Source: Alphaproteobacteria bacterium
Lineage (GTDB): Bacteria > Pseudomonadota > Alphaproteobacteria > CACIAM-22H2
Assembly: GCA_036394195.1 (NCBI GenBank)
Contig: DASWFO010000199.1
Location: 6,934 to 70,933 of the forward strand
Reading direction: 5' to 3'
Length of the DNA: 64,000 nt
Part shown: positions 17,021-36,983 of the stretch, in pieces
Position numbering within the stretch: the stretch's first letter is position 1
Layout of the letters: every line of letters starts with the position of its first letter
The notes under the pieces: model-generated
What the model was told of the DNA's origin: nothing
The model's input: the letters and a program-made list of their open reading frames with translations, nothing else
The model's database searches: none
Made by a program: the position numbers and the translations under genes

Positions 17021-17156
17021 GTTCAAGAGGGCGCGAGCGGACCTAAATCGCGGAACCTTTTGGCGCCGAAAACCTTTGTTGCTGTACCTGGGGTCCCGCG
17101 GATCCGGGCTCCCGGTGTATTTGGCCGCATTCCGCCCTTATCGTCGCAGCCATCTC

Positions 17157-19300: not shown

Positions 19301-19311
19301 GCAAAGCCGCC

Positions 19312-20085
19312 ATGCACGACGTCGTCAACAACGCTCTGACCGGCGCCCCTCCCGAGCCAGAAGTGAGACTCGACTTCGCCCGACGACGCCGCATCGGCAT
19401 GGACGAGGCGATCTATTGCGCATCGAAATCGCCGGCGCAGCTCGCCGCCATTCTCGACGCCGCCGAGGCGCGGGGTGTCGGTCTTCTGCTCACGCGGCTT
19501 GAGCCGTCGATGGTCGCCGGCCTGCCGGACGCTCGCCGGCAACGTCTCGATTACGACCCGGTCTCGCGCACCGGCGTCTTTGGTCCGGCTGGGGTTCCGC
19601 AGGGCGCGCCGCGGGTCGCGATTGTCACCGCCGGAAGCTCGGACGTACCGGTGGCACGCGAGGTGGCGCGCACGCTCCGCTATCATGGTCACGACAGCCG
19701 CTTGTTCGCGGATGTCGGCGTCGCCGGACTGTGGCGGCTGATGGCCTGCATCGAAGCGATCGCGGCGCACAAGGTGGTCATCGTTGCCGCCGGGCTCGAC
19801 GGGGCTCTGCCGAGCGTCGTCGCCGGCCAGGTGCCCGGGGCAGTGATCGCCGTGCCGACCTCGGTTGGCTACGGCGTGGCCGCGGGCGGGCAGGCGGCGC
19901 TCAACGCCGTGCTCGCCAGCTGTGCGCCCGGCCTGACGGTCGTCAACATCGACAACGGCTACGGCGCCGCCTGCGCCGCGTTACGCGTGCTGCGGGCGCT
20001 GGACGCGGTGGCGAGCCCCGCATCCGCGCCGGCGCGATCCGGCCTTGCCGATCTGCCACCTCCGACTTCAGGAGACATCCCATGA
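19312..20085 (+). CDS. larB: Pyridinium-3,5-biscarboxylic acid mononucleotide synthase LarB (PurE-like)
   Basis: The PurE-like core ...RVAIVTAGSSDVPVAREV...VVIVAAGLDGALPSVVAGQVPGAVIAVPTSVGYGVAAGG is present. An alternative TTG start at 19297 overlaps the larE stop. Confidence 0.8.
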   Translation: MHDVVNNALTGAPPEPEVRLDFARRRRIGMDEAIYCASKSPAQLAAILDAAEARGVGLLLTRLEPSMVAGLPDARRQRLDYDPVSRTGVFGPAGVPQGAPRVAIVTAGSSDVPVAREVARTLRYHGHDSRLFADVGVAGLWRLMACIEAIAAHKVVIVAAGLDGALPSVVAGQVPGAVIAVPTSVGYGVAAGGQAALNAVLASCAPGLTVVNIDNGYGAACAALRVLRALDAVASPASAPARSGLADLPPPTSGDIP

Positions 20086-22780: not shown

Positions 22781-24955
22781 TCAGTTGGCGAGCGGATCCG
22801 GGCGGACCTGCACCTTGTAAATGCGCGGCGATTCTTTCGTGCCATTCTCGTTGTGGAACATCGTGCGGGTCCCCGACGTCGTCCACAGGCCCTTGCCCTT
22901 CCAGCCGGCGTTGGGATCGTCGATGCGGCCATCCACGTTCTTGGTGAAGAAGCCGAGCGGGTAGGGCACCCGCAGGTCGACGAGCTTGCCGTCGACGACC
23001 GCCAGCAGCGATTCGCTGCCGTTCGCCTGGGCGACCGGCACGTCGTTGCCAAGCCCGAGCGTATTGAAGCGGTCGACCCAGATGTAATAGGCGTGGTTGG
23101 CGCTGCCCGGATCGCTGACGCCGTTCATCTTAGGTCCGGGCATCTCGTACAGGGTCCAGCCCTCGGGGCAATGCTTGCCGGTGGCCGCGGCCGGGCCGTT
23201 CAGCGGGCCCTTGCACTTGCTGCGGTCGAAGCTGCCGATATGGCCGCTCGAGAAGACCGTCCACACCACGCCCTTGGTGTCGAGGTCGATCCCGCGCGAC
23301 CCGTACGCGATCTCCGGCGGCAGATAGACTTCGGTCAGGGCGGTCTCGGACGGGTTCGAGCCGGGAACCAGCCGCATGATGTAGCCGGGCTGGTCGACGC
23401 GAGAGAACCCGACATCCATCGCCTGACCCCAGATCGAATCGTCCACTGGGCTCGGCTGAATGCCGTAGAACGCGGCCATGATCCGCTTGTCCTTGTTCGG
23501 ATCGAGCGGGTCGTTCGGACCGACCCAGGCGTCGCGCTTGCCGTTGCCGTTGCTGTCGATGATGACCGGCGTCCAGCCTTGCGAGGCCTTCTCGTCGCCG
23601 GTCGCCTCGAACTTCTTCACGTCCAGCCAGCCGACCACGCCGCTTTGCGGGCCGCCGGCGCTGGTCCACAGGGTGCCCTTCTTGTCGAAGTAGAGGTGAT
23701 GCGTGCTGAAGCAAGTGTCGATCAGAGTCCATTTCTGCGTCTTCGGATCGTACATCGACAGCTGCCGCGGCGATTCGTTGAGCGGCGCCACCTTTGCCGA
23801 CGGATGGTCGGAGCCCGCCTTGCAGAAATCGGGGTTCGCGGGCTGACGGATGCGCGCGGTGAACCACACGCGGCCCTTCTCGTCCATCATCGGGTTGTGG
23901 ATGCTGGTGTGGCCGTCCCAGATCGGGTCGTCGCCCCAGTACACCGACGGCCCGTGCGGCAGGTCGAGCGAGGACGGCGTCTTCGGATCTCTGAACGGAT
24001 GCTTGATCTGGGTGGCCTTATTGCTCACCGGGTCGAACACCGGCACCAGATCCGTGCTCTCCTCGGGCGAGCCGTAGATGGCGCCGTTGGCGTTGACGCG
24101 CGGGTTGCGCTTGTCGCTCGAGACCGCGTCGTGCAGGTAGAATTTCGGCGTCGACCAGTCCCAGATGCTGACCACCATGTTGCGCTCGACGCCTTCCGGC
24201 CGCCGCGGCTTGGCCTTCGGCAGCTCGCCCTTTTGAATGCGGGCGGTCCAGTCGGCGTAGAGCTCGACGCCTTTGTCGCCGAGCCGGCCCATGGTCAAGG
24301 CCATGTTGGACATCGCCTGGCCGGATTGCAGGCGGCGCGTCCACTGGTCGATCGGGTCTTTGAACTCGGAGATGAGTTCCTTCGGCATCTGGCGGACACC
24401 GCGGGTGCCGAGCGCGTGGCAGGACTGGCAGGAGTTCTTCACCGTGTCGATCCAGTAGGCCTGGGTCTTCATCACGTCGGGGATGTGATTGCCCTTGTCG
24501 CCGGTACCGGGGAACTCGGACTTGGCCGGGATCTGGATCATCGAATACCAGTACATGCCCGGATAATATTCGGCGGCGGCGGCCTCGCTGGGGGCGGGCA
24601 CGGCGCGCAGGTTCATCAGCTTGCCGGGCTCGGTGTGCAGCTTCGGGGAATCGATGAGGCCGTAGCCCCGGACCCAGATGTCGTATGCGCCCTTCGGCAG
24701 GTCGGGAATGACGTAACGGCCCTGGTCATCGGTGACCACGACCTTGGCGAATTTCGTCGGCAGGTCGCGGGTCTCGGCGATCACCCACACGCCGGCTTCC
24801 GGCCCGTTCGGCCCGCTGACCACGCCGCCGATGTCGTCGGCGTCGATCTTGACCGCCGGGGCGGCTTGTTGCGCGTGTGCCGGGATCGCCGTCGTGCCGA
24901 GCAGGCCCGCCAGCATCGCCGCGAAATAGACATACGCCCGTGTCGTGGTCTTCAT
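22781..24955 (-). CDS. Large secreted protein with CarboxypepD_reg-like N-terminal domain and a CXXCH heme-c motif
   Basis: ATG at 24955 with a GGAGGAGAT RBS. The signal peptide is MKTTTRAYVYFAAMLAGLLGTTAIPAHA. It carries VVTDDQGRYVIPDLPKGAYDIWVRGYG (CarboxypepD_reg) and a single NSCQSCH motif. It is about 724 aa and W/G/D-rich (possible beta-propeller). Confidence 0.6.
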   Translation of the reverse strand: MKTTTRAYVYFAAMLAGLLGTTAIPAHAQQAAPAVKIDADDIGGVVSGPNGPEAGVWVIAETRDLPTKFAKVVVTDDQGRYVIPDLPKGAYDIWVRGYGLIDSPKLHTEPGKLMNLRAVPAPSEAAAAEYYPGMYWYSMIQIPAKSEFPGTGDKGNHIPDVMKTQAYWIDTVKNSCQSCHALGTRGVRQMPKELISEFKDPIDQWTRRLQSGQAMSNMALTMGRLGDKGVELYADWTARIQKGELPKAKPRRPEGVERNMVVSIWDWSTPKFYLHDAVSSDKRNPRVNANGAIYGSPEESTDLVPVFDPVSNKATQIKHPFRDPKTPSSLDLPHGPSVYWGDDPIWDGHTSIHNPMMDEKGRVWFTARIRQPANPDFCKAGSDHPSAKVAPLNESPRQLSMYDPKTQKWTLIDTCFSTHHLYFDKKGTLWTSAGGPQSGVVGWLDVKKFEATGDEKASQGWTPVIIDSNGNGKRDAWVGPNDPLDPNKDKRIMAAFYGIQPSPVDDSIWGQAMDVGFSRVDQPGYIMRLVPGSNPSETALTEVYLPPEIAYGSRGIDLDTKGVVWTVFSSGHIGSFDRSKCKGPLNGPAAATGKHCPEGWTLYEMPGPKMNGVSDPGSANHAYYIWVDRFNTLGLGNDVPVAQANGSESLLAVVDGKLVDLRVPYPLGFFTKNVDGRIDDPNAGWKGKGLWTTSGTRTMFHNENGTKESPRIYKVQVRPDPLAN

Positions 24956-25106
24956 GGCCGATCTCCTCCCCAACCGCAAATGTCGCCGAACCGACTTCGC
25001 CCCCCGGTCTTTAGACCGAGCCTTGACAACAGAGTGCATCTTCCGGGGCTTAGCCGCAAGACCCCCGCAACCCGGACGTGTCCGGTTCGACGCCGCGCGC
25101 GGCTTT

Positions 25107-26609
25107 TTACTCGGCGAGGGGCGGAAGGTTCAGCGCGCGGTCGACCATGGCGGTCGCGCGCTTGAAGTCGTAATTGCGGAAGACGTTGGACTTCACGATG
25201 AACGACGCGCCGCCGTAGAACTTCTCGTATTGCTGGTGCCGGCTGCCGAATTCGGTGCCGACGAAGTCCCACGCGAGGCGCATCAGCGCGATGCGGTCCC
25301 TGGCGCCGGTCGACGCCGATTGGAAGTAGCGCTCGATGTCCTTGGCCGCCTGCGGATTGGCGAAGTCCTTGGCCGAGGAGGGGAGGGTGATCAGGCCGGC
25401 GCCGGAGAGCTCGCGCACGATGTCGATGACGTGCGGGTTGATCTTCGACTGCAGCGCCATGACCGAGTAGAGCGACGCCTGGCTCGGCCACAACACGCCG
25501 TCGTCGTCGATGGTCGCGGTCGCCTCGTGCGAATAGAGCATGTTCTCGACGATGGAGGCGTAGGCGCACAGCTCGCCCATCTCGACCATCACCTGGGGCA
25601 CGGCGTCGTTGCCGGTCGCTTCGTTGAGGCGCTTGGCGATGCCGGCGAGGAAGCGCAGCTTGGTCGCATAGCGCGCCTGCGCCTGATGGTTGCCGTAGAG
25701 ATGCGCCGGCGTCTTGCGCCATTGGTCGCGCGTCAGCTCCACGTTGCGGTAGATGAACACGCGCTCCCACGGCACGAAGCAGTTGTCGAGGACGACGAAG
25801 CAGTCGGTCTCGTCGAAGCGGCTCGACAGCGGATAGTCGTAGGCGTTCGTGGCACCGAGCGCGAAGGGGCGCCGCGCATAAAGCCTGAGGCCCGGATCGT
25901 CGTTCGGAATCGCGACGTTGAATGCATACGCCTCGTCGCCGGGCTGAAGCGGATGGATGCAGGTCACTTGCACGTAGTCGGAATAGACGGCGCCGGTGGC
26001 CAGCTGCTGGCCGCCGGAGAGTGTGATGCCGGAATCGCTTTCCTTGACCACCCCGGCATAAAGCGTCGGATCCTTCTGCTTGTGCGCCGGCTTGCTGCGG
26101 TCGATCTGCGGCGGGACGATCGCATAGCTCACATAGGCGTGGGTGTCGCGGATGTGCCTGTAGAATTTCAGCAGGTTGTCCGCGAATTGCGGCCCGCCGG
26201 CGGCGAAGAACTGCGGCTTGGCGGCGTAGCCGGCGAAGAAATTCGAGACGTGATCGGGCGTTCGTCCCATCAGGCCGAAGCTCTGTTCGGCCCAGGCCTC
26301 GGCCGCGATCCGCTTGGCGCGCAGATCGGCGTGCGAGCGCGGGATCTGGTAGCAGCGCCACACCGGCCCGCCGGTGTCGGGCGAGGTGAAGGTCATCACC
26401 TCGCGATGCTCAGGCGACGCCGCATGATCGAAGAGGTGCGCCAGGGCGCGCGCGCCCTCGCGGAACGCCGGATGATCGACGGGGTTGGTGACCTTCTCGC
26501 CGTCTACATAGATGGCGCGCGGGGTGCATCGGAGATTGGAGAGGAAATCGTTACCGGTCCTAAGGCGTGTTGGTGCGGTCTTGGGCGTACCCGGGCTAGG
26601 CGGCGTCAT
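25107..26609 (-). CDS. 4-hydroxyphenylacetate 3-monooxygenase oxygenase-component (HpaB) family flavin monooxygenase
   Basis: 500 aa. The N-terminus ...TGNDFLSNLRCTPRAIYVDGEKVTNPVDHPAF and the C-terminal acyl-CoA-dehydrogenase-like fold blocks match the HpaB family. No reductase partner is nearby. Confidence 0.7.
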   Translation of the reverse strand: MTPPSPGTPKTAPTRLRTGNDFLSNLRCTPRAIYVDGEKVTNPVDHPAFREGARALAHLFDHAASPEHREVMTFTSPDTGGPVWRCYQIPRSHADLRAKRIAAEAWAEQSFGLMGRTPDHVSNFFAGYAAKPQFFAAGGPQFADNLLKFYRHIRDTHAYVSYAIVPPQIDRSKPAHKQKDPTLYAGVVKESDSGITLSGGQQLATGAVYSDYVQVTCIHPLQPGDEAYAFNVAIPNDDPGLRLYARRPFALGATNAYDYPLSSRFDETDCFVVLDNCFVPWERVFIYRNVELTRDQWRKTPAHLYGNHQAQARYATKLRFLAGIAKRLNEATGNDAVPQVMVEMGELCAYASIVENMLYSHEATATIDDDGVLWPSQASLYSVMALQSKINPHVIDIVRELSGAGLITLPSSAKDFANPQAAKDIERYFQSASTGARDRIALMRLAWDFVGTEFGSRHQQYEKFYGGASFIVKSNVFRNYDFKRATAMVDRALNLPPLAE

Positions 26610-26805
26610 GGGCGCTAAACTGCATCTTCTGCGCCGCACCTGCAAGCCGCGGCCGCGAGCCCGGGAGGGCGATTGGCTTGCATATTGCATTTCACCCGGT
26701 TTTGGGAGTTCCTGGGCGCTTGGCTGCCGTTGCGACCATGTTCACGGCTATGATTTTCCAAACCTTTCCCGCCGGACCGCCGGCATCGCGTCCTTTGGCC
26801 CACCC

Positions 26806-29800
26806 ATGACCATCCACGTCGCCGTGCATCACCGCACAGTCTACCGGTACGACCGCCTGGTGGCACTCGGCCCGCAGGTCGTGCGTCTCCGTCCGGCGCC
26901 GCATAGCCGAACACCGATTCTCAGCTATGGGATGACGGTCCAGCCGAAGACTCACTTCATCAACTGGCAGCAGGACCCGCACGGCAATTTTCAGGCGCGC
27001 CTTGTGTTTCTGGAGAAGGCGCGCGAATTCTCCGTCGATATCGACCTGGTGGCCGATCTCGCCGTGGTGAACCCGTTCGACTTCTTCCTGGAGCCGAGTG
27101 CCGAGAAATTTCCCTTCGTCTACGGCAGCGACGTCGCCACCGACCTCATCCCTTACCGCGAGACCGAGCCAGCGGGCTCGCTGCTCGCCAAATGGCTGAA
27201 GGAGGTGGACCGGACGCCGATGCGGACGACGGACTTCCTGGTGAACCTGAACCGCCGGCTGCAGAAGGACATCTCCTACGTCATCCGCCTGGAACCCGGC
27301 GTGCAGAGCTGCGAGGACACCTTGCACCTGCGCCGGGGCTCTTGCCGCGACAGCGCCTGGCTGCTGGTCCAGATCCTGCGCCATCTCGGCTTTGCAGCGC
27401 GCTTTGTGTCGGGCTACCTCATCCAGCTGACACCCGACGTGAAGCCTCTCGACGGGCCGCCCGGGCCGGAGCAGGACTTCACCGACCTTCACGCCTGGGC
27501 GGAGGCGTTCCTCCCTGGCGCCGGCTGGATCGGGCTCGATCCGACCTCCGGGCTGTTCGCGGGCGAAGGGCACATTCCGCTGGCCGCGGCCCCTGCGCCG
27601 ACCAGTGCCGCACCAATCACCGGCGCCGTGGACGAGTGCGAAGTCGACTTCAAGCACGAGATGACGGTCACGCGGGTTCGCGAAAGTGCGCGGGTGACCA
27701 AGCCCTACACCGACGAGCAGTGGCAGCGCATCGACCGGCTCGGCCGGGCCATCGACCGCGACATCGCGAGGACGGACCTGCGCCTCACCATGGGCGGCGA
27801 GCCGACCTTCGTCTCGATCGACGACATGGATGGCGCCGAGTGGAACACCGCCGCTGTCGGGCCGACCAAGCGCAAGCTGGCCGGCCGGTTGCTGCGGCGG
27901 TTGCAGAAGCGCTGGGCGCCGGGCGCGCTCCTGCATTACGGCCAGGGCAAGTGGTATCCGGGAGAATCGCTGCCGCGCTGGGCGCTCGGCTGTTTCTGGC
28001 GGCGCGACGGCGAGCCGGTGTGGCGCGATCCGACGCTCTTCGCCGATGACGAGACCAAGGGAAATGCCGGTTTCGCCGACGCCGAGCGCTTCGGCGAGAT
28101 GCTGACCCGGCGTCTGCAGATCGACACGTCGTTCCTGGTCACCGGCTACGAGGATGTCTGGCACTATCTGGCGCGCGAGCACCGCTTGCCGGTGAATGTC
28201 GACCCCTTCGAGTCCAATCTGCGCGAGCCCGAAGAGCGGGCGCGGCTGGCGCGGATCTTCACCCAGGGGCTGGATCACCCGATCGGCCTGGCGCTGCCGC
28301 TGCAGCGCGTGCGTGGCTCCGGCGGCGACTATTGGGCGAGCGGGCGCTGGTTCTTCCGGCCCGAGCGCATGTATCTGCTGCCGGGCGATTCGCCGATGGG
28401 GTTGCGCCTGCCCCTTGATTCGCTCCCGTGGGCGAAGGAGGGCGACCAGTCGCAGCACTACGAGCCCGACCCATTCGAGCCGCGCCAGAAGCTGCCGCCG
28501 CGCGCGGCCCTGGCGCAGCCCCATCAGCGCCGCGGCAACGGCCACGGCCGTGACGAGGCGCGTGCCCGGGCTCACATCGCGGGGCAGGGGCCGCCGGCGG
28601 ACCGCCGCGCCAACGGCGAAGCCCCGCCAGGCCTCGGCCAGTCCGCATCCTCATTGGTGCGCACCGCCCTTTGCCTCGAGCCGCGCGACGGCAAGCTTCA
28701 CGCGTTCCTGCCGCCGGTGACCATGCTCGAGGACTATCTCGACCTGGTTGCGGCGATCGAAGACACCGCGGCCGACATCGGCACCCGGATCATCGTCGAG
28801 GGCTACACGCCGCCGCGCGATCCGCGCCTCAAGCAGTTCAGCGTGACACCCGATCCGGGCGTGATCGAGGTCAACATTCAGCCGGCGTCGGACTGGCCGG
28901 AGCTCGTCGACAACACGTCCGTTCTATACGAAGAGGCGCGGGCGACGCGGCTCGGCACCGAGAAGTTCATGCTCGACGGCCGGCATACCGGGACCGGCGG
29001 CGGAAATCATTTCACCCTTGGCGGTTCGACGGCGGCCGATTCACCCTTCCTGCGCCGCCCCGACCTGCTGCGCAGCCTGATCGGCTACTGGCTCAATCAC
29101 CCGTCGCTGTCCTACCTGTTTTCAGGCCTCTATATCGGCCCGACCAGCCAGGCGCCGCGCGTCGACGATGCGCGCAACGATGCCGTCGCCGAGCTGGAGC
29201 TGGCGTTTGCGCAGGTGCCGGAGAACGGCGAGGTGCCGCCGTGGCTCGTCGACCGCATCTTCCGCAATCTCCTGGTCGACGTGACCGGCAACACCCATCG
29301 CACCGAGTTCTGCATAGACAAGCTCTACTCGCCCGACAGCGCCACCGGCCGCCTCGGTCTCGTCGAGATGCGCGCCTTCGAGATGCCGCCGCATGCGCGG
29401 ATGAGCCTCGCCCAGCAGCTGCTTATCCGCGCGCTTCTGGCCGAGTTCGCGCAGCGCCCGTATCGGAAGAAGCTCGTCCGCTGGAATACGCAGCTTCATG
29501 ACCGGTTCCTGCTGCCGCATTTCGTGCGCGACGATTTCAACGACGTGATCGACGAGCTCCGCGTGGCCAGCTACCCGTTCGAGGCGGACTGGTTCGCGCC
29601 GCACTACGAATTACGTTTTCCGGAGATCGGCGCTGTCGCGTATCGCAACATCCATCTCGAGCTTCGCCAGGCGATCGAGCCGTGGCCGGTGCTGGGCGAA
29701 GAGCCGGCCGGCGGCAGCACGGTGCGTTATGTCGATTCGTCGCTCGAGCGCGTGCAGGTGAAACTCCGGAACCTAACCGACGGACGCTACGTTGTGACCT

Positions 29801-30180
29801 GCAACGGCGTCCGCGTGCCGCTGCATCCCACTGGAGCCGAAGGTGAGTACGTGGCCGGCATCCGCTATCGGGCCTGGGCGCCTGCCGCCAGTCTCCATCC
29901 AACCATCGGCGTGCATGCACCACTGGTGTTCGACATCGTGGACACGTGGTCCGAGCGCTCACTGGGCGGCTGCACCTATCACGTGGCGCATCCCGGCGGG
30001 CGCAACTACACGACCTACCCGGTCAACAGCAACGAGGCCGAAGCGCGCCGCCGCGCGCGCTTCTTCCCCACCGGCACCACGCCGGGCCGGGTCGTCGCCC
30101 CGGCGCTGCCGCAAGTCGGCGAGTTCCCGCTCACGCTCGATCTGCGATATGCAGGCGCACAGCTTGCAAAAAACCGCTAG
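26806..30180 (+). CDS. Transglutaminase-family protein, large form (Bact_transglu_N + TGase core + long C-terminal DUF2126-like region), 1124 aa
   Basis: The start MTIHVAVHHRTVYRYDRLVALGPQV is typical of Bact_transglu_N. The transglutaminase catalytic Cys context is RRGSCRDSAWLLVQILRHLGFAARFVSGY. The listed ORF starts at 26512. Confidence 0.85.
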   Translation: MTIHVAVHHRTVYRYDRLVALGPQVVRLRPAPHSRTPILSYGMTVQPKTHFINWQQDPHGNFQARLVFLEKAREFSVDIDLVADLAVVNPFDFFLEPSAEKFPFVYGSDVATDLIPYRETEPAGSLLAKWLKEVDRTPMRTTDFLVNLNRRLQKDISYVIRLEPGVQSCEDTLHLRRGSCRDSAWLLVQILRHLGFAARFVSGYLIQLTPDVKPLDGPPGPEQDFTDLHAWAEAFLPGAGWIGLDPTSGLFAGEGHIPLAAAPAPTSAAPITGAVDECEVDFKHEMTVTRVRESARVTKPYTDEQWQRIDRLGRAIDRDIARTDLRLTMGGEPTFVSIDDMDGAEWNTAAVGPTKRKLAGRLLRRLQKRWAPGALLHYGQGKWYPGESLPRWALGCFWRRDGEPVWRDPTLFADDETKGNAGFADAERFGEMLTRRLQIDTSFLVTGYEDVWHYLAREHRLPVNVDPFESNLREPEERARLARIFTQGLDHPIGLALPLQRVRGSGGDYWASGRWFFRPERMYLLPGDSPMGLRLPLDSLPWAKEGDQSQHYEPDPFEPRQKLPPRAALAQPHQRRGNGHGRDEARARAHIAGQGPPADRRANGEAPPGLGQSASSLVRTALCLEPRDGKLHAFLPPVTMLEDYLDLVAAIEDTAADIGTRIIVEGYTPPRDPRLKQFSVTPDPGVIEVNIQPASDWPELVDNTSVLYEEARATRLGTEKFMLDGRHTGTGGGNHFTLGGSTAADSPFLRRPDLLRSLIGYWLNHPSLSYLFSGLYIGPTSQAPRVDDARNDAVAELELAFAQVPENGEVPPWLVDRIFRNLLVDVTGNTHRTEFCIDKLYSPDSATGRLGLVEMRAFEMPPHARMSLAQQLLIRALLAEFAQRPYRKKLVRWNTQLHDRFLLPHFVRDDFNDVIDELRVASYPFEADWFAPHYELRFPEIGAVAYRNIHLELRQAIEPWPVLGEEPAGGSTVRYVDSSLERVQVKLRNLTDGRYVVTCNGVRVPLHPTGAEGEYVAGIRYRAWAPAASLHPTIGVHAPLVFDIVDTWSERSLGGCTYHVAHPGGRNYTTYPVNSNEAEARRRARFFPTGTTPGRVVAPALPQVGEFPLTLDLRYAGAQLAKNR

Positions 30181-30304
30181 ATTTCTAGGTTAGTTGTCGA
30201 ATCGGAGCGGGCACGCGAACGTGAGACAAGGCCGACCGTCACCGGCTGCCGATCCGGCTGTGCCCAATCCTGGCGCAGCGGCGAGCGACGTGACCGCGGA
30301 TCGG

Positions 30305-32797
30305 ATGGGCTTGGACTACGCGTACAATTACGACGAGATGGTCGACGGCCGCCGGGCGATCCGCGCGGCCTGGCAGCCCTTGATCGGCGTGCTGCAGGCG
30401 ATGCCGAAAGGCGCGTTTGCCGAACGCGTCGAGCGCGTCCATCGCCAGCACGAGGACATATCGGTCGCCTATCGCATCGAGGCGGACACCGCCGCGAACG
30501 GCAATCGCCGGCCGTTCGACCTCCTGCCGATGGTGATCACCGCCGAGGAATGGAGCGACATCGAGATCGCGCTGGCGCAACGCGCGCGCCTGATGGACGC
30601 GGTCGTCACCGACATTTATGGCTCGCGCAAGCTCGTCGCCGACGGTCTCCTGCCGCCGGCGTTGATCTTCGGCAATCCGCGGTTCCTGCGCCCCTGCGCC
30701 GGGATGATGTCCGGCGGCGTGCCGCATGTTCACGCCTATGCGGCCGATCTCGTCCGCGCGCCGGACGGGTCGTGGAAGGTGCTCGCCGACCGGCTGCAGG
30801 CCCCGGCGGGCATCGGCTTTGCACTGCAGAACCGCAGCCTGCTGGCGCGCACCGTCCCGGAGCTGTTCCGCGCGCACATGGTGGAGCGGATCGAGCCGTT
30901 CTTCGACCGTTGGCGCGAGGCGTTGATGGACCTGTCGCCGCGCCGCGACGGGGCGCGCATCGCGGTCATGACGCCGGGCCCGTTCAATCCGGCGTTCTTC
31001 GAGCACGTCTATCTGGCACGCCAGCTCGGCGCGACGCTCGTGGAAGGCGCCGATCTCACGATGCGCTACGACCGCATTTTCGTGAAGACGCTCGGCGTGC
31101 TGCAGCAGGTCGACGTCGTCCTGCGGTTCATGGAGGACGATTACTGCGATCCGCTTGAGCTGCGCAGCACCTCGGTGCTCGGCGTCGCCGGCCTGCTTCA
31201 GGCGGTGCGTGCGGGAACTGTCGTCGTCGCCAACGCGCTCGGTGCCAGCGTCGCCGAGACGCCGGCGTTCAGGCCGTTTCTGCCCGCCATCGCCAGAGCG
31301 GTGCTTGGCGAAGAGCTGCTTATGGCCTCGGTCGACACCGAATGGCTGGGCGGCGGCTCGACCGCCGAGCGGACGGGTGAGTTGCCGCCGGATGTTTCGA
31401 TCCGCCCGGCCTTCCCGACACGGCGCGACGATCCGGCGGCGGGGGACGAGGCCGAGGGTGCTGCGCGCGAGGCTCTGCTCGACGATCTGAGGCGGCGGCC
31501 GTACATGTACGTCACCGAAAAGGCGGTCGCCCCATCGGTCATTCCGGTCTGGACGCCGGAGGCGCTGGTGCCGCGACCGTTGACGCTGCGCGTCTTCTGC
31601 ATCCGAGACGGCGACGCCTATCGCACCATGCCCGGCGGCTTCGCCCAGGTGCCCAATCGGGTGACCGGTGCGGTGGCCCCTCTGCGTCAGGTCGCGATGA
31701 GCAAGGACACGTGGGTGCTGCTCGGCGAAGATCGCGCGGTGGCCCCGGCGCATCGCGCCCCGCCCGCGGTCCAGGCGATCCGCCGCCCGACCGATGAGCT
31801 GCGCAGCCGCACCGCCGATGACGTGTTCTGGCTCGGCCGCTACATGGAGCGGCTCGACAATGCGGCGCGCATGATGCGCAGTGCCGCAATGCGGCTGACC
31901 GTCGAGCGGTTCGGGCCCGGCCAGCGCCAGGAGCTGCATTATCTGGCCGGTCTCCTCGTCGAAGCGGGCTTCATCGAGGCAGGGGCGGGTGAGATGATGT
32001 CCGACAGCGGCGGTCTGATGCTGGCGCTTTCGGCCGGGGCGGCGCGGGGGCCGGGCCTGGATGAGGCCTTCCGGGCGGTGCGGCGCATCGCGCAGGCGCT
32101 GCGCGACCGTCTGTCGAACGACATGTGGAATGTCGTGATCGGCAATCTCCGCGACGCTCGCGAGCGGATCCAATCACAGTCCGCCGAGGTCGACAGCTTC
32201 ATCGGCGCCCTCGACAACCTGATCGGCGTCATCGCCGCGTTCGGCGGCATGGTCGCGGAGAACATGACCCGCGGGGCGGGATGGCGTTTCCTCGATATCG
32301 GCCGGCGGTTGGAACGCGGCACCTACGAGAGCGCTATCGTCCGCGGCATCCTGGCGAGCCGGCGCGAAGATGCCGAAACCGCCCTCCATCTGGCTCTCGA
32401 GCTCAGCGACAGCACGATCACCTATCGCTCGCGCTATTTCACCGCCATCCAGACCGGACCGGTGGTCGATCTGATCCTCGCCGATGAGGCCAATCCGCGC
32501 GGCATCGCGTTTCAGATCCAGACCATCATCACGCATCTCAACGAGCTGGCACGCTCGTTCGAGCGCGTCAGCGACCGGCCGGAGCAGGCGCTCGCCGAAA
32601 TGGTCCTCGCCGCGATCCGCGGCGCCAAGATCGACCGGCTGGACGGGGCGGAGGATCAAGCAGCCCGGCGCGAGCTCTCCGAGCTCCTCGGTCATCTGTG
32701 CCACCAGTTTCTCGCCTTGTCCGAAGCGATCACGCGGGCCTATTTCTCCCATGTGCGCGCTCCCTACACGGTCGGCTACGGGTCCGCGCGGCTATGA
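30305..32797 (+). CDS. Circularly permuted type-2 ATP-grasp protein fused to alpha-E domain (DUF404/DUF407 + DUF403)
   Basis: The N-terminal half has YNYDEMVDGRRAIRAAWQPL...LPMVITAEEWSDIEIALAQRARLMDAVVTDIYG (CP-ATP-grasp). The C-terminal 300 aa has DDVFWLGRYMERLDNAARMMRSAA... (alpha-E). The start is uncertain: TTG at 30194, GTG at 30221 and ATG at 30305 are all candidates. Confidence 0.8.
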   Translation: MGLDYAYNYDEMVDGRRAIRAAWQPLIGVLQAMPKGAFAERVERVHRQHEDISVAYRIEADTAANGNRRPFDLLPMVITAEEWSDIEIALAQRARLMDAVVTDIYGSRKLVADGLLPPALIFGNPRFLRPCAGMMSGGVPHVHAYAADLVRAPDGSWKVLADRLQAPAGIGFALQNRSLLARTVPELFRAHMVERIEPFFDRWREALMDLSPRRDGARIAVMTPGPFNPAFFEHVYLARQLGATLVEGADLTMRYDRIFVKTLGVLQQVDVVLRFMEDDYCDPLELRSTSVLGVAGLLQAVRAGTVVVANALGASVAETPAFRPFLPAIARAVLGEELLMASVDTEWLGGGSTAERTGELPPDVSIRPAFPTRRDDPAAGDEAEGAAREALLDDLRRRPYMYVTEKAVAPSVIPVWTPEALVPRPLTLRVFCIRDGDAYRTMPGGFAQVPNRVTGAVAPLRQVAMSKDTWVLLGEDRAVAPAHRAPPAVQAIRRPTDELRSRTADDVFWLGRYMERLDNAARMMRSAAMRLTVERFGPGQRQELHYLAGLLVEAGFIEAGAGEMMSDSGGLMLALSAGAARGPGLDEAFRAVRRIAQALRDRLSNDMWNVVIGNLRDARERIQSQSAEVDSFIGALDNLIGVIAAFGGMVAENMTRGAGWRFLDIGRRLERGTYESAIVRGILASRREDAETALHLALELSDSTITYRSRYFTAIQTGPVVDLILADEANPRGIAFQIQTIITHLNELARSFERVSDRPEQALAEMVLAAIRGAKIDRLDGAEDQAARRELSELLGHLCHQFLALSEAITRAYFSHVRAPYTVGYGSARL

Positions 32798-33666
32798 TGT
32801 ATCGCATCAATCACCGCTCGACTTACACCTACTCGGGGCCGGTTGATCTATCCTATCACCTGCTGCATCTGACGCCGCGGGTGTTGCAGCACCAGCGCGT
32901 GTGGGATTTGCAGATCACCACCCAGCCATCGCCGACGGCGAAGACCGAGCGCAGCGACTATTTCGGCAATCGCCTCACCTATCTCACGGTGGCGCAGCCG
33001 CACGCGAAGTTCACCGTGGAAATGGACGCCGCCGTCGATGTGCGCTTTCCCGCCCCGCCGCACGAGACGGCGACGCCGCCCTGGGAGCGGGTCCGCCATG
33101 CGCTGCGGAGTGCGCGCGAGCCCGACCTGATCGCGGCGGCTGAGTTCTCGTTTGCCTCGCCGCAGACCCCGCCGTCGGCAGCCCTGCTCGCCTATGCCGA
33201 GCCGTCGTTCACGCCCGGGCGGCCGATCTTCGCCGCGGTCAAGGAGCTGACCTCGCGCATCCATCGCGACTTCGTCTTCGAGCCGGGAGCGACCAGCGTC
33301 AGCACGCCGGTCGCCCAGGTGCTGCAGCAGCGCCGCGGCGTGTGCCAGGACTTCGCCCATCTCGAACTGGCGGCGTTGCGCGCCATGGGCGTCGCCGCGC
33401 GCTATGTCAGCGGCTACATCCGGACCTACCACAAGGACAAAGCCGGCCTGAAAGGCAGCGATGCGTCGCACGCCTGGGTGTCGTTCTTCTGTCCCGGCAC
33501 AGGCTGGATCGACGTCGATCCCACCAACGACCTGGTGGTGAAGGAGGAGCATATCGTGCTGGGCTGGGGCCGCGACTACGACGACGTGAGCCCGATCCGC
33601 GGCGTGATGCTGGGCGGTGGCGATCACTTCCTGAACGTCGCCGTGACGGTGACCCCACAGGCCTGA
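32794..33666 (+). CDS. Transglutaminase-family protein, short form (Bact_transglu_N + TGase core), 290 aa
   Basis: The ATG overlaps the upstream stop (ATGA). MMYRINHRSTYTYSGPVDLSYHLLHLTPR... is followed by the catalytic context RRGVCQDFAHLELAALRAMGVAARYVSGY. Confidence 0.85.
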   Translation: MMYRINHRSTYTYSGPVDLSYHLLHLTPRVLQHQRVWDLQITTQPSPTAKTERSDYFGNRLTYLTVAQPHAKFTVEMDAAVDVRFPAPPHETATPPWERVRHALRSAREPDLIAAAEFSFASPQTPPSAALLAYAEPSFTPGRPIFAAVKELTSRIHRDFVFEPGATSVSTPVAQVLQQRRGVCQDFAHLELAALRAMGVAARYVSGYIRTYHKDKAGLKGSDASHAWVSFFCPGTGWIDVDPTNDLVVKEEHIVLGWGRDYDDVSPIRGVMLGGGDHFLNVAVTVTPQA

Positions 33667-33766
33667 CGGAGGTTTTTGCTCGCCGCCGGATGCGACGCCG
33701 GCCGGGACATGGTACGGATATTGCTCCATCCACCATAGAGGCCGCCCCCCGGGGGCGGAAGGGAGA

Positions 33767-35185
33767 ATGGTGGTATCGGCGTTCGATGAAATGGGCAGCG
33801 GTCCAGGGCTGCGCCCATCCTATGCGGCGGTCAACGACTGGATGGCCCAGACGCCGGCGGCGATCTTCGAGATCAAGCGCCGCGAGGCCGAATTCTTCTT
33901 CCGCAAGACCGGGATCACCTTCGCCGTCTACACCGAGGGCGGCGATCCGGAGCGGCTCATTCCCTTCGACATCATCCCGCGGGTGCTCGACGGCCAGGAG
34001 TGGGAGTTCCTCACCCGTGGGCTGAAGCAGCGGGCACATGCCCTGAACGCCTTCATCCGCGACGTCTACGGCCCGCAGGAGTTCATCCGCGCCGGCAAAA
34101 TCCCCGCCGACCTGATCCTGAAAAATCCCAGCTTCGTGCAGGCGATGGTCGGCCTCGACGTCCCCGCCGGGATCTACACTCATGTCGCCGGCATCGACAT
34201 CGTGCGCGTCAGCTCCACCGAGTTCTACGTCCTCGAGGACAACTGCCGCACGCCGTCCGGCGTCTCGTACATGATCGAGAACCGCGAGATCATGTCGCGG
34301 CTGTTCCCCGATCTCTTCGCCCGGTCCCGCGTCCGGCCGGTGTCGCACTATCCGCAGGAACTGCTCGACACGCTCCGCTCCGTCAGCCCGCGAAGCTGCG
34401 AAGCCGAGCCGACGGTCGTGCTGCTGAGCCCCGGCTCCTACAACAGCGCCTACTACGAGCACACGTTCCTCGCCGACGAGATGGGCATTGAGATCGTCGA
34501 GGGCGCCGATCTCGTCGTTGATCAGGACGTCGTGTACATGCGCACCACGCGCGGATTGGAGCGGGTCGATGTCATTTACCGGCGGATCGACGATGCGTTT
34601 GTCGATCCGCAGGTGTTCAACCCGGACTCGCTGCTGGGCGTGGCCGGATTGATGGCGGCGTACCGCGCCGGCAACGTGACCGTCGCCAACGCGGTCGGGG
34701 CGGGCATCGCCGACGACAAGGCGGTTTATACCTACGTGCCCGAAATGATCCGCTTCTTCCTCGGCGAGGAGCCGATCCTGCAGAACGTGCCGACCTGGAA
34801 ATGCGGCGATGCCCAGGACTGCGCCTATGTGCTCGACCACTTGGCCGAGCTGGTGGTCAAGGACGTCCACGGATCGGGCGGCTACGGAATGCTCGTGGGC
34901 CCGCATGCCACCGCCGCGGAACGGGCCGCGTTCGCCGACACCATCCGCGCCCGTCCCGGCCGCTACATTGCGCAGCCGACCTTGAGCCTCTCGACCTGCC
35001 CGACCTTCGTCGACAAGGGGATCGCCCCCCGGCACGTCGACCTGCGGCCGTTCGTGCTGTGCGGCCGCGAGATCCACATCGTGCCCGGCGGCCTCACGCG
35101 CGTGGCGCTGCGCGAGGGCTCGCTGGTGGTGAATTCGAGCCAGGGTGGGGGTACGAAGGACACCTGGGTCGTGGATCTGGCGTGA
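33767..35185 (+). CDS. Circularly permuted type-2 ATP-grasp protein (stand-alone, DUF404/DUF407)
   Basis: 472 aa. ...YAAVNDWMAQTPAAIFEIKRREAEFFFRKTGITFAVYTEGGDPERLIPFDIIPRVLDGQEWEFLTRGLKQRAHALNAFIRDVYG... is paralogous to the N-terminal half of the 30305 product. Confidence 0.85.
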   Translation: MVVSAFDEMGSGPGLRPSYAAVNDWMAQTPAAIFEIKRREAEFFFRKTGITFAVYTEGGDPERLIPFDIIPRVLDGQEWEFLTRGLKQRAHALNAFIRDVYGPQEFIRAGKIPADLILKNPSFVQAMVGLDVPAGIYTHVAGIDIVRVSSTEFYVLEDNCRTPSGVSYMIENREIMSRLFPDLFARSRVRPVSHYPQELLDTLRSVSPRSCEAEPTVVLLSPGSYNSAYYEHTFLADEMGIEIVEGADLVVDQDVVYMRTTRGLERVDVIYRRIDDAFVDPQVFNPDSLLGVAGLMAAYRAGNVTVANAVGAGIADDKAVYTYVPEMIRFFLGEEPILQNVPTWKCGDAQDCAYVLDHLAELVVKDVHGSGGYGMLVGPHATAAERAAFADTIRARPGRYIAQPTLSLSTCPTFVDKGIAPRHVDLRPFVLCGREIHIVPGGLTRVALREGSLVVNSSQGGGTKDTWVVDLA

Positions 35186-35197
35186 TGTAGCGAATCA

Positions 35198-36232
35198 ATG
35201 CTGAGCCGCACCGCGGAAAATCTTTACTGGCTGGCCCGCTACGTGGAGCGCGCGGAGAACATCGCGCGCCTGCTCGACGTGGCGCTCAGGATGTCCGGCA
35301 TGCCGTTTGACCCCGGGACCGGCCGCAGCGAATGGCGTTCCACCATCATCGCGTCGGGCTGCGAGAAAAGCTTCTTCGCGAAATACCAAACGCCGACCGC
35401 CGAGACGGTGATCCAGCACCTGGTGCGCGATCTCGACAATCCGTCGTCGATCCTCTCCTGCCTGGCGACCGCGCGGCGCAACTCGCGGGCGGTGCGCACG
35501 GCGCTGACCGTCGACATGTGGGAGGCGATCAACGGCACATGGCTCGCCGCGCGCGGCTTCGGCGACGACGCGTTCCGGGTCAGCGACATCGGACGGTTTC
35601 TCGACTGGGTGAAGGAGCGCTCGACCCTGTTCAGCGGGGCGGTGCTCGGCACCATGCTGCAGGCCGACGCGTTCTGGTTCACGCGCCTCGGCACCTATGT
35701 CGAGCGCGCCGACGCCACGGCGCGCATCCTCGACGTCAAATACAACGTGCTGCTGCCGGGGCACGAGCCCGTGGGCGGAACGCTCGACCATTATCAGTGG
35801 GCGGCCATCCTGACGTCGGTGTCGTCCCGCCGCGCCTATCAATGGCTCTATCACGACCGGATCAAGCCGTGGCTCGTCGCCGAGCTGCTGATCCTGCGAC
35901 CGGAGATGCCGCGCTCGCTGATCACCTGCGCGCGCGAGATCAACTACTATCTCGACGTCATCGGCGGGACCTATGATTCCCGCCGCGAGTGTCACGAGCT
36001 CGCCGGCCAGATCCTCCGCCAGCTGAACCGCACCAAGGTGGAGCAGATCATGGGCGGGCTGCACGAGTTCCTGACCGAGTTCATCGATAGCAACGTCGAG
36101 CTCGGCCACAAGATCTCGCGGCAGTATTTCCAGCTCGCCCATCTGACGCGGGCCGCAGCACCGGCCGCGGGTCAAACCCAGACTCAAACCCAGAGCCAGG
36201 GCCACACGCAGACCCAGTCGCAACAGGCTTAG
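35198..36232 (+). CDS. Alpha-E domain protein (DUF403), stand-alone, with low-complexity TQTQTQSQ tail
   Basis: MLSRTAENLYWLARYVERAENIARLLDVALRMS... is paralogous to the C-terminal part of the 30305 product. Confidence 0.85.
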   Translation: MLSRTAENLYWLARYVERAENIARLLDVALRMSGMPFDPGTGRSEWRSTIIASGCEKSFFAKYQTPTAETVIQHLVRDLDNPSSILSCLATARRNSRAVRTALTVDMWEAINGTWLAARGFGDDAFRVSDIGRFLDWVKERSTLFSGAVLGTMLQADAFWFTRLGTYVERADATARILDVKYNVLLPGHEPVGGTLDHYQWAAILTSVSSRRAYQWLYHDRIKPWLVAELLILRPEMPRSLITCAREINYYLDVIGGTYDSRRECHELAGQILRQLNRTKVEQIMGGLHEFLTEFIDSNVELGHKISRQYFQLAHLTRAAAPAAGQTQTQTQSQGHTQTQSQQA

Positions 36233-36236
36233 ACGC

Positions 36237-36983
36237 TCAGAACTCTTCGAACAGCCGGCCGAATCCCTGGAGTTTGTCGTGAATGCCGTTGGCACGCAGC
36301 GCGTGCCAATAGGTGGCGGCGTTGATCGCGATCACTGGCTTTGCGAGCCACAGCTCGGCGGCCGCCGCCAGGCGGACCATGCTGAGATTGGTCCCCACTT
36401 GAATAAGGGCGTCCACGTCGGGGCCATCGAGCTCCATCAGCTTGGCCTGGCACATTGCGGGCGTCACCTCGGCAATCGAGGTCCAGCTCGGGCATTGCAG
36501 GCAGATGTCGCGAACGACGTCGAAGCCGCTTTCCGTGAAGTAGCGCTTCACCTCGGCGTTGGCGACCGGATAGTACGGCGTCAGCAGGGCAATCCGCTTG
36601 ATGCCGCCATACGCCTTGAGCGCCGCCGAGCAGGCGTGGGAGCCGATGGTGGCGCCCCGTCCCGCCTCTTTCTCCACCTTGGCCTGGAACGCATCGGCAC
36701 CGGCGACACCGTCATAGAACGTGATCGACGACATTCCCATGACCAGATAGTCCGGCGCGCAGGTCATGACGCTCCGCACCGCATCGAGAACGCCCTGGCC
36801 GATCTTCTCCGTCCCGGCCATGAAGGTTTCGTTGCTCACCGCCTGTGTGTTCGGCGTGTAGATGCGGCTGTAATGGTTCGTGACGCCGGCCGGGCGCAGC
36901 ATGTCGAAATCGGGTTGTACGACGGTGTTCGTCGACGGCCCGATCACGCCGAATTTTCGCCGCCACCCTAGAACGTCAGGCAT
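36237..36983 (-). CDS. Asp/Glu/hydantoin racemase superfamily protein (arylmalonate decarboxylase / maleate isomerase-like)
   Basis: 248 aa. GVIGPSTNTVVQPDF...YLVMGMSSITFYDG...RIALLTPYYPV...DALIQVGTNL fits the two-domain racemase fold with paired Cys-containing motifs. Confidence 0.65.
   Translation of the reverse strand: MPDVLGWRRKFGVIGPSTNTVVQPDFDMLRPAGVTNHYSRIYTPNTQAVSNETFMAGTEKIGQGVLDAVRSVMTCAPDYLVMGMSSITFYDGVAGADAFQAKVEKEAGRGATIGSHACSAALKAYGGIKRIALLTPYYPVANAEVKRYFTESGFDVVRDICLQCPSWTSIAEVTPAMCQAKLMELDGPDVDALIQVGTNLSMVRLAAAAELWLAKPVIAINAATYWHALRANGIHDKLQGFGRLFEEF

Follow-up and report, generated by a model that had tools for sequence, protein, structure and literature searches.

RESULTS

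Five genes with paired domain types

The window that we analyzed, a stretch of 64,000 nucleotides, carries five consecutive open reading frames, g1 to g5, all on the forward strand (Table 1). Their GC3 bias is that of real genes in a genome of ~66% GC. The domains named in the initial annotation were all recovered by Pfam at these positions, and its account of the neighbors, an HpaB gene diverging from g1 and a racemase-superfamily gene converging on g5, proved correct as well; the latter belongs to the Amdase family, which we take to be part of the Asp/Glu-racemase superfamily. The surroundings are chromosomal core, with recA and alaS nearby, and the flanks differ between close relatives while the five-gene block stays intact. 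PADLOC gave no match for the locus, and the gaps of the cluster (12 to 124 nt) contain no ORF of precursor-peptide size.

TABLE 1 Genes and promoter-like elements at the locus, with positions in the window
Feature	Position	Strand	Description
HpaB_N/HpaB gene	25107-26690	-	Divergent neighbor of g1
P1	26674-26688	+	Sigma-54 (-24/-12)-like element TGGCTTGCATATTGC; 118 nt from g1 ATG, HpaB/g1 intergenic region
g1	26806-30180	+	1124 aa; Bact_transglu_N 6-83, Transglut_core 130-246, DUF2126 276-1114
g2	30305-32797	+	830 aa; CP_ATPgrasp_2 75-449, Alpha-E 500-814
g3	32794-33666	+	290 aa; Bact_transglu_N and Transglut_core
P2	33710-33724	+	Sigma-54 (-24/-12)-like element TGGTACGGATATTGC; 43 nt from g4 ATG, g3-g4 gap
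g4	33767-35185	+	472 aa; CP_ATPgrasp_1/2, full length
g5	35198-36232	+	344 aa; Alpha-E, full length
Amdase-family gene	36237-36983	-	Convergent neighbor of g5

The g1 protein fuses a transglutaminase-fold Cys-His-Asp domain (approximately residues 1 to 275) to a DUF2126 domain that is matched over its full length with 1327 bits. In an alignment of 83 g1-type sequences, the triad C180/H229/D245 is invariant and DUF2126 has 162 invariant columns; identity across phyla is 57 to 66%. The protein is 100% identical to a database entry from a metagenome-assembled genome labeled "Alphaproteobacteria bacterium," and its closest named relatives come from Reyranellaceae, Vineibacter, and Enhydrobacter; an origin in Rhizobiales is not borne out. 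The predicted structure of g1 is of moderate confidence (pLDDT 69). Structural matching assigns DUF2126 to the GS/GCL/PafA/Dop fold class, with glutamine synthetases nearer to it than PafA and with the gamma-glutamyl-amine ligases 4HPP, 8WWU (1-naphthylamine GS), and 9QUR (GmaS) among the best matches. As modeled, this part of g1 is predicted to be a glutamine-synthetase-like carboxylate-amine ligase domain and not a passive tail. The short transglutaminase-like protein g3 is related to PDB 3ISR (E 1.7e-9), and its triad C184/H226/D242 is invariant in 72 sequences.

The fused ATP-grasp domain has lost its catalytic motifs

All catalytic motifs are intact in g4, which carries the invariant VLEDN, ADDK, and VVK...GGYGM motifs and matches PDB 3N6X, deposited as "putative glutathionylspermidine synthase," with an E value of 1e-191. 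The ExN, DDK, and Lys plus Gly-rich loop motifs, invariant in g4-type enzymes, are absent from g2 in 70 of the 70 orthologues examined, a loss that is also seen by comparison with 3N6X. By analogy with the motifs of canonical ATP-grasp enzymes, the g2 domain is probably a pseudo-ligase; it does retain 47 of the 149 alignment columns that never vary among g4-type enzymes, and could bind ligands by another route. Because the nucleotide and Mg motifs are lost, fused g2 and the g4-g5 pair are unlikely to be functionally equivalent. The g5 protein is entirely helical and has two homologous halves (E 3e-5) that make up an internal duplication; it contains two ER motifs and ends in a low-complexity, Thr/Gln-rich tail.

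Gene order across genomes

The order g1-g2-g3 is kept in 61 of 64 informative loci from at least five phyla, so g3 belongs with g1-g2 and not with g4-g5; since g3 is fixed in third place, the split set consists of an ATP-grasp and an alpha-E protein only and lacks a transglutaminase of its own. An ATP-grasp and alpha-E pair lies within 10 kb of g1 in 35 of 80 loci, in four different arrangements. Upstream placement is found in most genomes: the stand-alone pair stands ahead of g1 in a five-gene string at 23 other loci and upstream of g1 on the opposite strand at 9 further ones, while it follows g3 at 2 of the 80 loci and in relatives of the present clade. The coexistence of long and short versions had been called unexplained; since the pair and the g1 unit recur together in this way, having both forms side by side is the rule of a composite system and not a redundancy.

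Junctions and sigma-54-like elements

Coupling of adjacent genes by ATGA overlaps or 13-bp gaps, as first described, holds for g2 and g3: an ATGA overlap (positions 32794 to 32797) couples the translation of g3 to that of g2. In contrast, g4 and g5 are 12 nt apart and the g3-g4 gap is 100 nt long and contains a promoter-like element. The start of g2 is uncertain. With ATG 30305, just past which the similarity to orthologues begins, the g1-g2 gap measures 124 nt; it shrinks to 13 nt only with the alternative start TTG 30194, which gives 867 aa, and GTG 30221 is another alternative.

P1 departs from the sigma-54 consensus TGGCAC-N5-TTGC at 2 positions but keeps both the GG and the GC dinucleotide, and P2 departs from it at 1. 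The -24 half of P1 (TGGCTTGCA) also heads the homologous unit in the close relatives L082 to L084, in which the P2 block TGGTACGGATATTGCTCCATCCA is exactly preserved and the spacer around it has diverged. Over the whole window, matches to the sigma-54 consensus are not above chance, and the window has no convincing NtrC site; in other taxa, NtrC-like palindromes are 3- to 6-fold enriched ahead of genes of the g1 and g4 types. Across phyla, the sigma-54-like elements are conserved at operon heads only. In counts that are not independent, because they include related genomes such as many Pseudomonas, these elements precede head-of-unit g1-type genes at 47 of 59 loci (background, 10%), and elements with at most one mismatch do so at 30 of the 59 and before g4-type genes at 11 of 33 loci (background for both, 1.3%), with 0 of 21 where g1 follows the pair, 0 of 65 before g2, and 0 of 66 before g3. 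Because a conserved element of this type sits in the g3-g4 gap, transcription of g1 to g5 as a single message is doubtful.

The elements at g1 and g4 agree with published NtrC/sigma-54-dependent induction by nitrogen limitation in Burkholderia and Pseudomonas. Expression of Burkholderia cenocepacia BCAM1233-1236, which encode an ATP-grasp protein, an alpha-E protein, a transglutaminase, and a large transglutaminase protein, is down in an ntrC mutant under nitrogen limitation (-6 to -9.4 as tabulated), and 95% of the top 150 NtrC-dependent genes of that organism are also regulated by sigma-54 (PMC5491218). Pseudomonas putida PP_2685-2688 is induced by nitrogen limitation or nitrate (PMC3325844; PMC8050072). 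In marine metagenomes, the abundance of the system's domains follows that of urea-metabolism domains (PMC3597751).

The g4-g5 pair resembles that of Anbu operons

Anbu operons, such as P. putida PP_2685-2688 and that of Yersinia bercovieri, combine a circularly permuted ATP-grasp protein, an alpha-E protein, a transglutaminase-like protein, and the Ntn-hydrolase Anbu. The g4 protein is 77% identical to the ATP-grasp protein, and g5 is 64% identical to the alpha-E protein, of the Anbu operon at L081, so both are much nearer to that pair than to g2. The ATP-grasp-to-alpha-E order is also shared, and the element before g4 matches the published induction of such operons by nitrogen limitation. Unlike in Anbu operons, the pair here is placed after a g1-g2-g3 unit; the 64-kb window contains neither an Anbu gene nor a transglutaminase of the Anbu type, to which g3 has an identity of just 29%. 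The Y. bercovieri ATP-grasp protein releases phosphate from ATP, and pull-downs of the Anbu-operon proteins gave no stable complexes (PMC6376114).

DISCUSSION

The reading that we favor, with modest confidence, is that g1 to g5 form one composite amide-bond ligase/thiol-amidase system under nitrogen-limitation control, organized in two sigma-54-dependent units, with P1 serving g1-g2-g3 and P2 serving g4-g5. In the proposed course of induction, ligation, cleavage, and nitrogen salvage, scarcity of fixed nitrogen would lead an enhancer-binding protein (NtrC in beta- and gammaproteobacteria) to turn the genes on. The g4 protein would be an active ligase partnered with helical g5, the GS-like C-terminal domain of g1 would be a second ligase, and both would activate carboxylates as acyl-phosphates at the expense of ATP and join them to amines of a peptide, protein, or amino-acid-derived substrate. 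The papain-like domains of g1 (N terminus) and g3 would act as amidases that cleave or transfer amide or isopeptide bonds via a thioester intermediate. As a paralogue of g4 plus g5, g2 would most likely serve g1 and g3 as a scaffold, substrate-binding subunit, or regulator.

An alternative that we hold to be possible, if rather unlikely, is small-molecule nitrogen metabolism, in which the ligases would gamma-glutamylate or acylate free amines, polyamines, or amino acids, the transglutaminase-fold domains would be amidases that release or transfer nitrogen, and no protein would be a substrate. Its models are PuuA, GmaS, and the aryl-amine glutamine synthetases, which serve nitrogen acquisition, together with glutathionylspermidine synthetase. 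The gamma-glutamyl-amine ligases among the top DUF2126 matches, the name under which the g4 homologue 3N6X was deposited, and co-regulation with urea, polyamine, and amino-acid scavenging genes all speak for it, as does the preference of Iyer et al. (2008), given the lack of a nearby Pup-like ORF, for glutathione-like peptide metabolites as products of the Rv2566 family. However, the ligase pair is often joined with the proteasome-type peptidase Anbu, which suggests that the substrates are peptides or proteins; the great size of g1 and its 162 invariant residues go beyond what a small-molecule site usually needs; and no transporter or oxidase of the gamma-glutamylation type is conserved beside the cluster.

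The initial annotation saw in the five genes a tandem duplication that left two complete copies of a transglutaminase/ATP-grasp/alpha-E module, one fused and one split. Every domain type is indeed present twice and the homology of the paralogues is detectable, but the two ATP-grasp domains share just 32% identity, the alpha-E domains 23%, and the transglutaminase domains 30%, values by which we judge the paralogues to be ancient. The place of g3 with g1-g2, the motifs missing from g2, the additional GS-like ligase of g1, the closeness of g4 and g5 to the Anbu pair, and the mixing of the same parts in varying orders in many phyla also argue against duplicated, functionally equivalent modules, which we consider very improbable; we read the locus as a single copy of one composite system. 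Least probable of all is a role in biosynthesis of a secreted peptide natural product or in anti-phage defense or other conflict, for although ATP-grasp ligases and papain-like peptidases are known in some peptide clusters and the block stays intact between variable flanks, there is no precursor-sized ORF in the gaps, no exporter in the conserved core, and no PADLOC match, and the locus lies in a core chromosomal context; its very strong cross-phylum conservation and Ntr-type regulation fit housekeeping stress physiology.

Like glutathionylspermidine synthetase/amidase, which carries an ATP-dependent amide ligase and a papain-like cysteine amidase on one polypeptide, g1 would unite both activities, an analogy that implies no family membership: that enzyme combines ATP-grasp and CHAP domains, whereas the g1 ligase is GS-like and its amidase has a transglutaminase fold. 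In contrast to pupylation, with PafA as the ligase and Dop as the deamidase/depupylase, the locus has no Pup-like small ORF and no AAA+ unfoldase, and cleavage would use a papain-like Cys domain instead of a Dop-type paralogue. The composite system also resembles in plan the Rv2566/Rv2567-type cluster, in which Rv2567 is presumably an ATP-grasp/alpha-E fusion and Rv2569c a short transglutaminase, and BCAM1233-1236. In all of them, ATP-grasp/alpha-E partners accompany a large protein that joins a transglutaminase to a COOH-NH2 ligase, and the promoter elements suggest the same sigma-54/NtrC control as in BCAM1233-1236; what differs here is that the stand-alone pair follows g3, where most genomes have it upstream, and that it has a promoter-like element of its own.

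As the initial annotation stated, such neighborhoods were predicted by comparative genomics (Iyer et al. 2008) and described again in the Anbu structure papers, and we found no substrate, product, or complex in the literature for any member of the system. The 2017 Anbu papers (one being PMC6376114) declare their functional hypotheses untested, and a 2026 preprint, in which Rv2411c and Rv2567 of Mycobacterium tuberculosis do not make GABA-trehalose, still treats both as uncharacterized. The locus is a member of a widespread system already predicted by Iyer and Aravind. In other genomes, the partners of the same ligase pair would be the Anbu peptidase and a transglutaminase specific to the pair; in the composite system proposed here, the outcome may be the tagging, processing, and recycling of peptides or proteins, or the capture of amines, leading to nitrogen salvage.

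Results

Five ORFs on the forward strand, g1 to g5, make up the transglutaminase/ATP-grasp/alpha-E cluster (see table), and the gene and domain content proposed in the initial annotation is borne out by strong third-position GC bias in all five and by Pfam matches at very low E-values. The flanks agree with the first description: on one side lies an HpaB gene in divergent orientation, on the other an Amdase-family gene that is convergent and follows g5 after 4 nt. The junctions had been read as ATGA overlaps or 13-bp gaps. The overlap of g2 and g3 stands, whereas g5, the alpha-E gene directly downstream of the ATP-grasp gene, starts 12 nt after the end of g4, and g3 and g4 are 100 nt apart; with a g2 of 830 aa, 124 nt separate g1 and g2, a distance that shrinks to 13 nt only if g2 starts at the TTG at 30194. 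The genes recA and alaS lie 6-10 kb downstream, which places the cluster in the core chromosome. The g1 product is identical to a protein from a MAG labelled "Alphaproteobacteria bacterium." NCBIfam models matched none of the five proteins. Scanning the window for Rfam families and tRNAs gave no matches, and so neither a riboswitch nor any other RNA element of a known type.

Several further features of the window accompany the cluster. The C-terminus of g5 carries a Thr/Gln-rich low-complexity tail of about 30 residues, predicted to be disordered and partly encoded by a 12-nt tandem repeat; it is absent from the 313-aa alpha-E proteins of Anbu operons, which encode an ATP-grasp, an alpha-E, a transglutaminase-like protein and the Anbu Ntn-hydrolase. 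A sigma-54-like element also precedes an RND efflux operon, and the genes at 17076-20085 look like a nickel-pincer cofactor gene set.

Genes, promoter-like elements and other features, in window coordinates
Feature	Position	Strand	Length	Description
Sigma-54-like element	10790-10804			TGGCAAGCCTTTTGC, 1 mismatch, ~70 nt before RND efflux operon (10876-17020)
AcrB-type RND gene	10876-14190			RND efflux operon
Membrane-fusion protein gene	14187-15569			RND efflux operon
Outer-membrane factor gene	15566-17020			RND efflux operon
LarC-like nickel-insertion gene	17076-18446			
ORF	18443-19300		285 aa	No assignment; between LarC-like and LarB-like genes
LarB-like gene	19297-20085			AIR-carboxylase family
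ORF	22781-25039	-	752 aa	Good coding bias; only match a weak, sub-threshold CarboxypepD_reg
P1, sigma-54-like element	26674-26688			TGGCTTGCATATTGC, 2 mismatches, 118 nt before g1
g1	26806-30180	+	1124 aa	Pfam Bact_transglu_N, Transglut_core, full-length DUF2126 (1327 bits)
g2	30305-32797	+	830 aa	Pfam CP_ATPgrasp_2 (75-449), Alpha-E (500-814)
g3	32794-33666	+	290 aa	Pfam Bact_transglu_N, Transglut_core
P2, sigma-54-like -24/-12 element	33710-33724			TGGTACGGATATTGC, 1 mismatch, 43 nt before g4 start
GC-rich hairpin	33742-33760			GGCCGCCCCCCGGGGGCGG
g4	33767-35185	+	472 aa	Pfam CP_ATPgrasp_1/2, full-length
g5	35198-36232	+	344 aa	Pfam Alpha-E (match over 1-294 of 294)
g5 low-complexity tail	36140-36229			TQTQTQSQGHTQTQSQQA
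12-nt tandem repeat	36172-36194			

The initial annotation had described the cluster as two complete copies of one three-component module, one long and fused and the other split, arising by tandem duplication. Identity between the paralogues is only 32% for the ATP-grasps, 23% for the alpha-E domains and 30% for the transglutaminases, values on which we reject a recent tandem duplication, and g3 belongs elsewhere in the scheme. We fetched 80 loci around g1 relatives, one genome per species, and mapped seven domains by tblastn. Among the 64 loci with at least 4.5 kb of sequence downstream of g1, 61 have g1 followed directly by a g2-type fusion and then a g3-type transglutaminase, the order also seen in the window. 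They come from Alpha-, Beta-, Gamma- and Deltaproteobacteria as well as from Acidobacteriota, Verrucomicrobiota and Planctomycetota, and conservation of this order across phyla assigns g3 to a core made up of g1, g2 and g3. In 35 of the 80 loci a separate ATP-grasp and alpha-E pair is found within 10 kb of g1: upstream and co-directional in 23, upstream and divergent in 9, downstream and convergent in 1, and downstream and co-directional, as in the window, in 2 (L049 and L055). Seen against these loci, the window is an ordinary member of the system whose gene order is one of the rarer ones.

In close relatives (81-85% protein identity) the order g1-g2-g3-g4-g5 is retained exactly while the flanking genes differ, so the five-gene block stays together as a unit. 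In three of these relatives (L082-L084, positions 1-1650), a PHB-depolymerase gene precedes g1 with a 15-nt gap and a glutathione-S-transferase gene is divergent; HpaB occupies their position in the window. A PHB depolymerase/GST pair is sigma-54/NtrC-dependent in Burkholderia cenocepacia (PMC5491218). Six loci have extra genes separating g1 from g2. In three of them (L055, L044 and L020) these were inspected for a hidden conserved component and proved heterogeneous, encoding a TPR protein, a hybrid histidine kinase, a WYL regulator and a porin. In five loci (L018, L027, L033, L041 and L044), the stand-alone alpha-E gene is directly followed by a third transglutaminase gene, whose product is more divergent and shares 27-34% identity with g3, giving six-gene versions of the system.

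The stand-alone ATP-grasp g4 matches the structural-genomics protein 3N6X with an E-value of 1e-191 and nearly identical motifs. Its catalytic motifs are intact, and across the 32 aligned g4-type domains VLEDNxRxPSGVSY, ADDK and LVVK-x5-GG-YGMLxGP are all invariant. In canonical ATP-grasp enzymes, the ExN motif binds Mg and a Lys together with a Gly-rich loop binds ATP. When the 32 g4-type domains were aligned with 70 g2-type domains, all 70 of the latter had [AGS][DQ]R in place of EDN and ESP in place of DDK, and lacked the Gly-rich loop; the same losses in g2 are visible against 3N6X, so that g2 has neither the ExN motif nor the Lys and Gly-rich loop. The g2 family keeps 47 of the 149 columns that are invariant in the g4 family. 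If these motifs play the same roles here as in canonical ATP-grasp enzymes, their loss most likely makes g2 a paralogue without catalytic activity. The original authors had probably noticed before that the fused ATP-grasp is degenerate. For PF04174 the Pfam text reportedly speaks of "active and inactive versions" and of a [quoted passage not shown]

Both transglutaminase domains are related to the solved but uncharacterised structure 3ISR, and their Cys-His-Asp triads (g1 C180/H229/D245; g3 C184/H226/D242) are invariant. As in the large protein of the Rv2566-type core, g1 joins an N-terminal transglutaminase-like domain to a C-terminal DUF2126 of carboxylate-amine ligase fold. About 850 columns long, DUF2126 has 162 that are invariant across phyla; single-sequence and profile searches of the PDB with g1 gave matches only in the transglutaminase part and no solved relative of DUF2126 by sequence. 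Our analysis confirms the ligase assignment made for DUF2126 by Iyer, Burroughs and Aravind (PMC2588565), and g1 is the bearer of a third ligase, more than a long transglutaminase. The alpha-E protein g5 is confidently predicted to be all-helical (model pLDDT 86) and is an internal duplication of a unit of about 150 residues, each half opening with a W/F..R..VERA..AR.LDV motif whose ER residues (E17-R18 and E169-R170) are invariant. A single-sequence search of the PDB with alpha-E returned nothing, and a fold search with the model returned generic four-helix bundles only (such as CheA P1/HPt and designed bundles), a likeness that would fit a partner or adaptor better than an enzyme.

Sigma-54-like elements precede g1 (P1, the weaker) and g4 (P2, in the g3-g4 gap), as would be expected of Ntr-regulon units with predicted -24/-12 elements at their heads. 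At P2 the block TGGTACGGATATTGCTCCATCCA is kept exactly in relatives while the rest of the spacer has diverged, and the -24 half of P1 also heads the homologous unit in relatives. Across the 80 loci, we counted elements upstream of the genes (within 300 nt for g1), against a background of 1.3% at no more than one mismatch. Where g1 heads its unit, such an element is present in 30 of 59 loci (47 of 59 when two mismatches are allowed); where g1 follows the ATP-grasp/alpha-E pair, it is present in 0 of 21. It occurs upstream of 11 of 33 g4-type genes, and elements are found upstream of g2 in 0 of 65 cases and of g3 in 0 of 66. Because related genomes are among those counted, a formal p-value for these counts overstates their independence; despite this relatedness, placement of the element at unit heads is a clear positional pattern.

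No convincing NtrC palindrome (GCACC-N5-GGTGC) was found in the window; NtrC-like palindromes are enriched 3-6 fold upstream in other taxa. A sigma-70 and terminator scan of 25-38 kb gave no promoter-like sites, and terminator-like matches fell below the shuffle expectation. In B. cenocepacia, few genes depend on NtrC at nitrogen limitation as strongly as BCAM1233-1236, and sigma-54 also regulates 95% of the top NtrC targets (PMC5491218). Anbu-operon genes of Pseudomonas putida are up under nitrogen limitation or on nitrate (PMC3325844, PMC8050072). Together with P1, P2 and the pattern across loci, this published nitrogen control indicates that the window probably holds two nitrogen-regulated units, g1-g2-g3 and g4-g5, and not one five-gene operon. 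Between P2 and the g4 ribosome-binding site lies a GC-rich hairpin that could be a 5'-UTR structure; L082-L084 have a similar G/C-rich segment at its place before g4.

Discussion

The feature is real, its first interpretation was partly right, and the system is of a known kind that is biochemically unsolved. All parts of the Rv2566-type core (large protein, fusion gene, short transglutaminase and triads) are present in g1-g2-g3. With the Anbu-type system the cluster shares an ATP-grasp with intact motifs followed by alpha-E: g4 shares 77% and g5 64% identity with its counterpart in a classical four-gene Anbu operon of another genome. The Anbu operon has its cognate transglutaminase after alpha-E, whereas in the window the convergent Amdase-family gene stands there; no Anbu-type transglutaminase was found in the window, and g3, upstream of g4-g5, is only 29% identical to it. 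A tblastn search with the Anbu protein of an example operon (L081) found no Anbu gene in the 64-kb window and a match in only 1 of the 80 loci. The Anbu gene is frequent but not universal in such systems.

A homologous ATP-grasp shows ATP-dependent phosphate release (PMC6376114). We propose that amide bonds would be formed via acyl-phosphates, both by g4 in concert with g5 and by the g1 ligase domain, that the two papain-like domains of g1 and g3 would cleave or transfer such bonds, and that g2 may act as a non-catalytic adaptor. The purpose could be nitrogen salvage, through tagging and processing of peptides or proteins, or amine capture. Chief among the alternatives stands a pathway confined to small molecules, with gamma-glutamyl-amine or glutathione-like products, which the fold matches and the analysis of Iyer et al. 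2008 (PMC2588565) favour but which the frequent partnership with the Anbu peptidase weakens. A more specific proposal, which we regard as unlikely, is a single nitrogen-starvation machine that marks proteins or peptides with amino acids at the expense of ATP (by glutamylation, for example), cleaves them and recycles their nitrogen, with the dead g2 selecting substrates; that g2 would in addition couple g1, as a GS-like ligase/transglutaminase, and g3 to the active pair g4-g5 is part of the same long shot. Pupylation itself differs in having a small tag-protein gene and a proteasome/AAA+ partner: the cluster has no tag gene, its gaps being 12-124 nt, and no proteasome-like gene was found in its neighbourhood. 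Iyer et al. 2008 likewise concluded that the family has no Pup-type tagging partners (PMC2588565). A known anti-phage defence system is rejected, as at E<=0.01 none of the five matched a PADLOC model.

Computational work of 2008-2009 first defined the system, in agreement with the comparative-genomic origin first ascribed to it, and every part already has a Pfam family. Rv2569c is a possible homologue of g3; a 2024 paper that names it a serine protease never mentions a transglutaminase domain or the operon (PMC11081392), and we did not count it as evidence. In experimental work published as late as 2026 the proteins still figure as uncharacterised (see also PMC6376114). A literature search on "DUF2126" returned nothing, and no functional study came to light in recent literature on Anbu or the CP-ATP-grasp proteins; consistent with the earlier statement that no substrate or product had been shown experimentally, we found no published reaction for any component. 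The present analysis puts numbers on the synteny of the core, shows that the ATP-grasp of the fusion is consistently degenerate, tests DUF2126 at the level of its fold and describes the sigma-54 pattern across phyla.

These results argue for treating the five genes as a single system. Activity is predicted for g4 with g5 and for the ligase domain of g1, and not for g2; expression would be inducible via sigma-54 and nitrogen limitation, and the likeliest stable complex is the g1-g2-g3 trio. Cultivable Pseudomonas and Burkholderia carry the same genes, and the window offers no special experimental advantage over them. A family search gave at least 8000 candidate relatives of g1, all with E <= 1e-10, and identity of the protein stays at ~60% between Proteobacteria and groups such as Planctomycetota, Verrucomicrobiota and Acidobacteriota. 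If the tagging proposal were true, the system would add a third way of tagging proteins in bacteria, comparable to pupylation but without a protein tag, and Anbu would be an optional downstream peptidase. Among the blind spots in the physiology of nitrogen-starved bacteria the system ranks with the larger ones, and it is tied to the role of the Anbu proto-proteasome.
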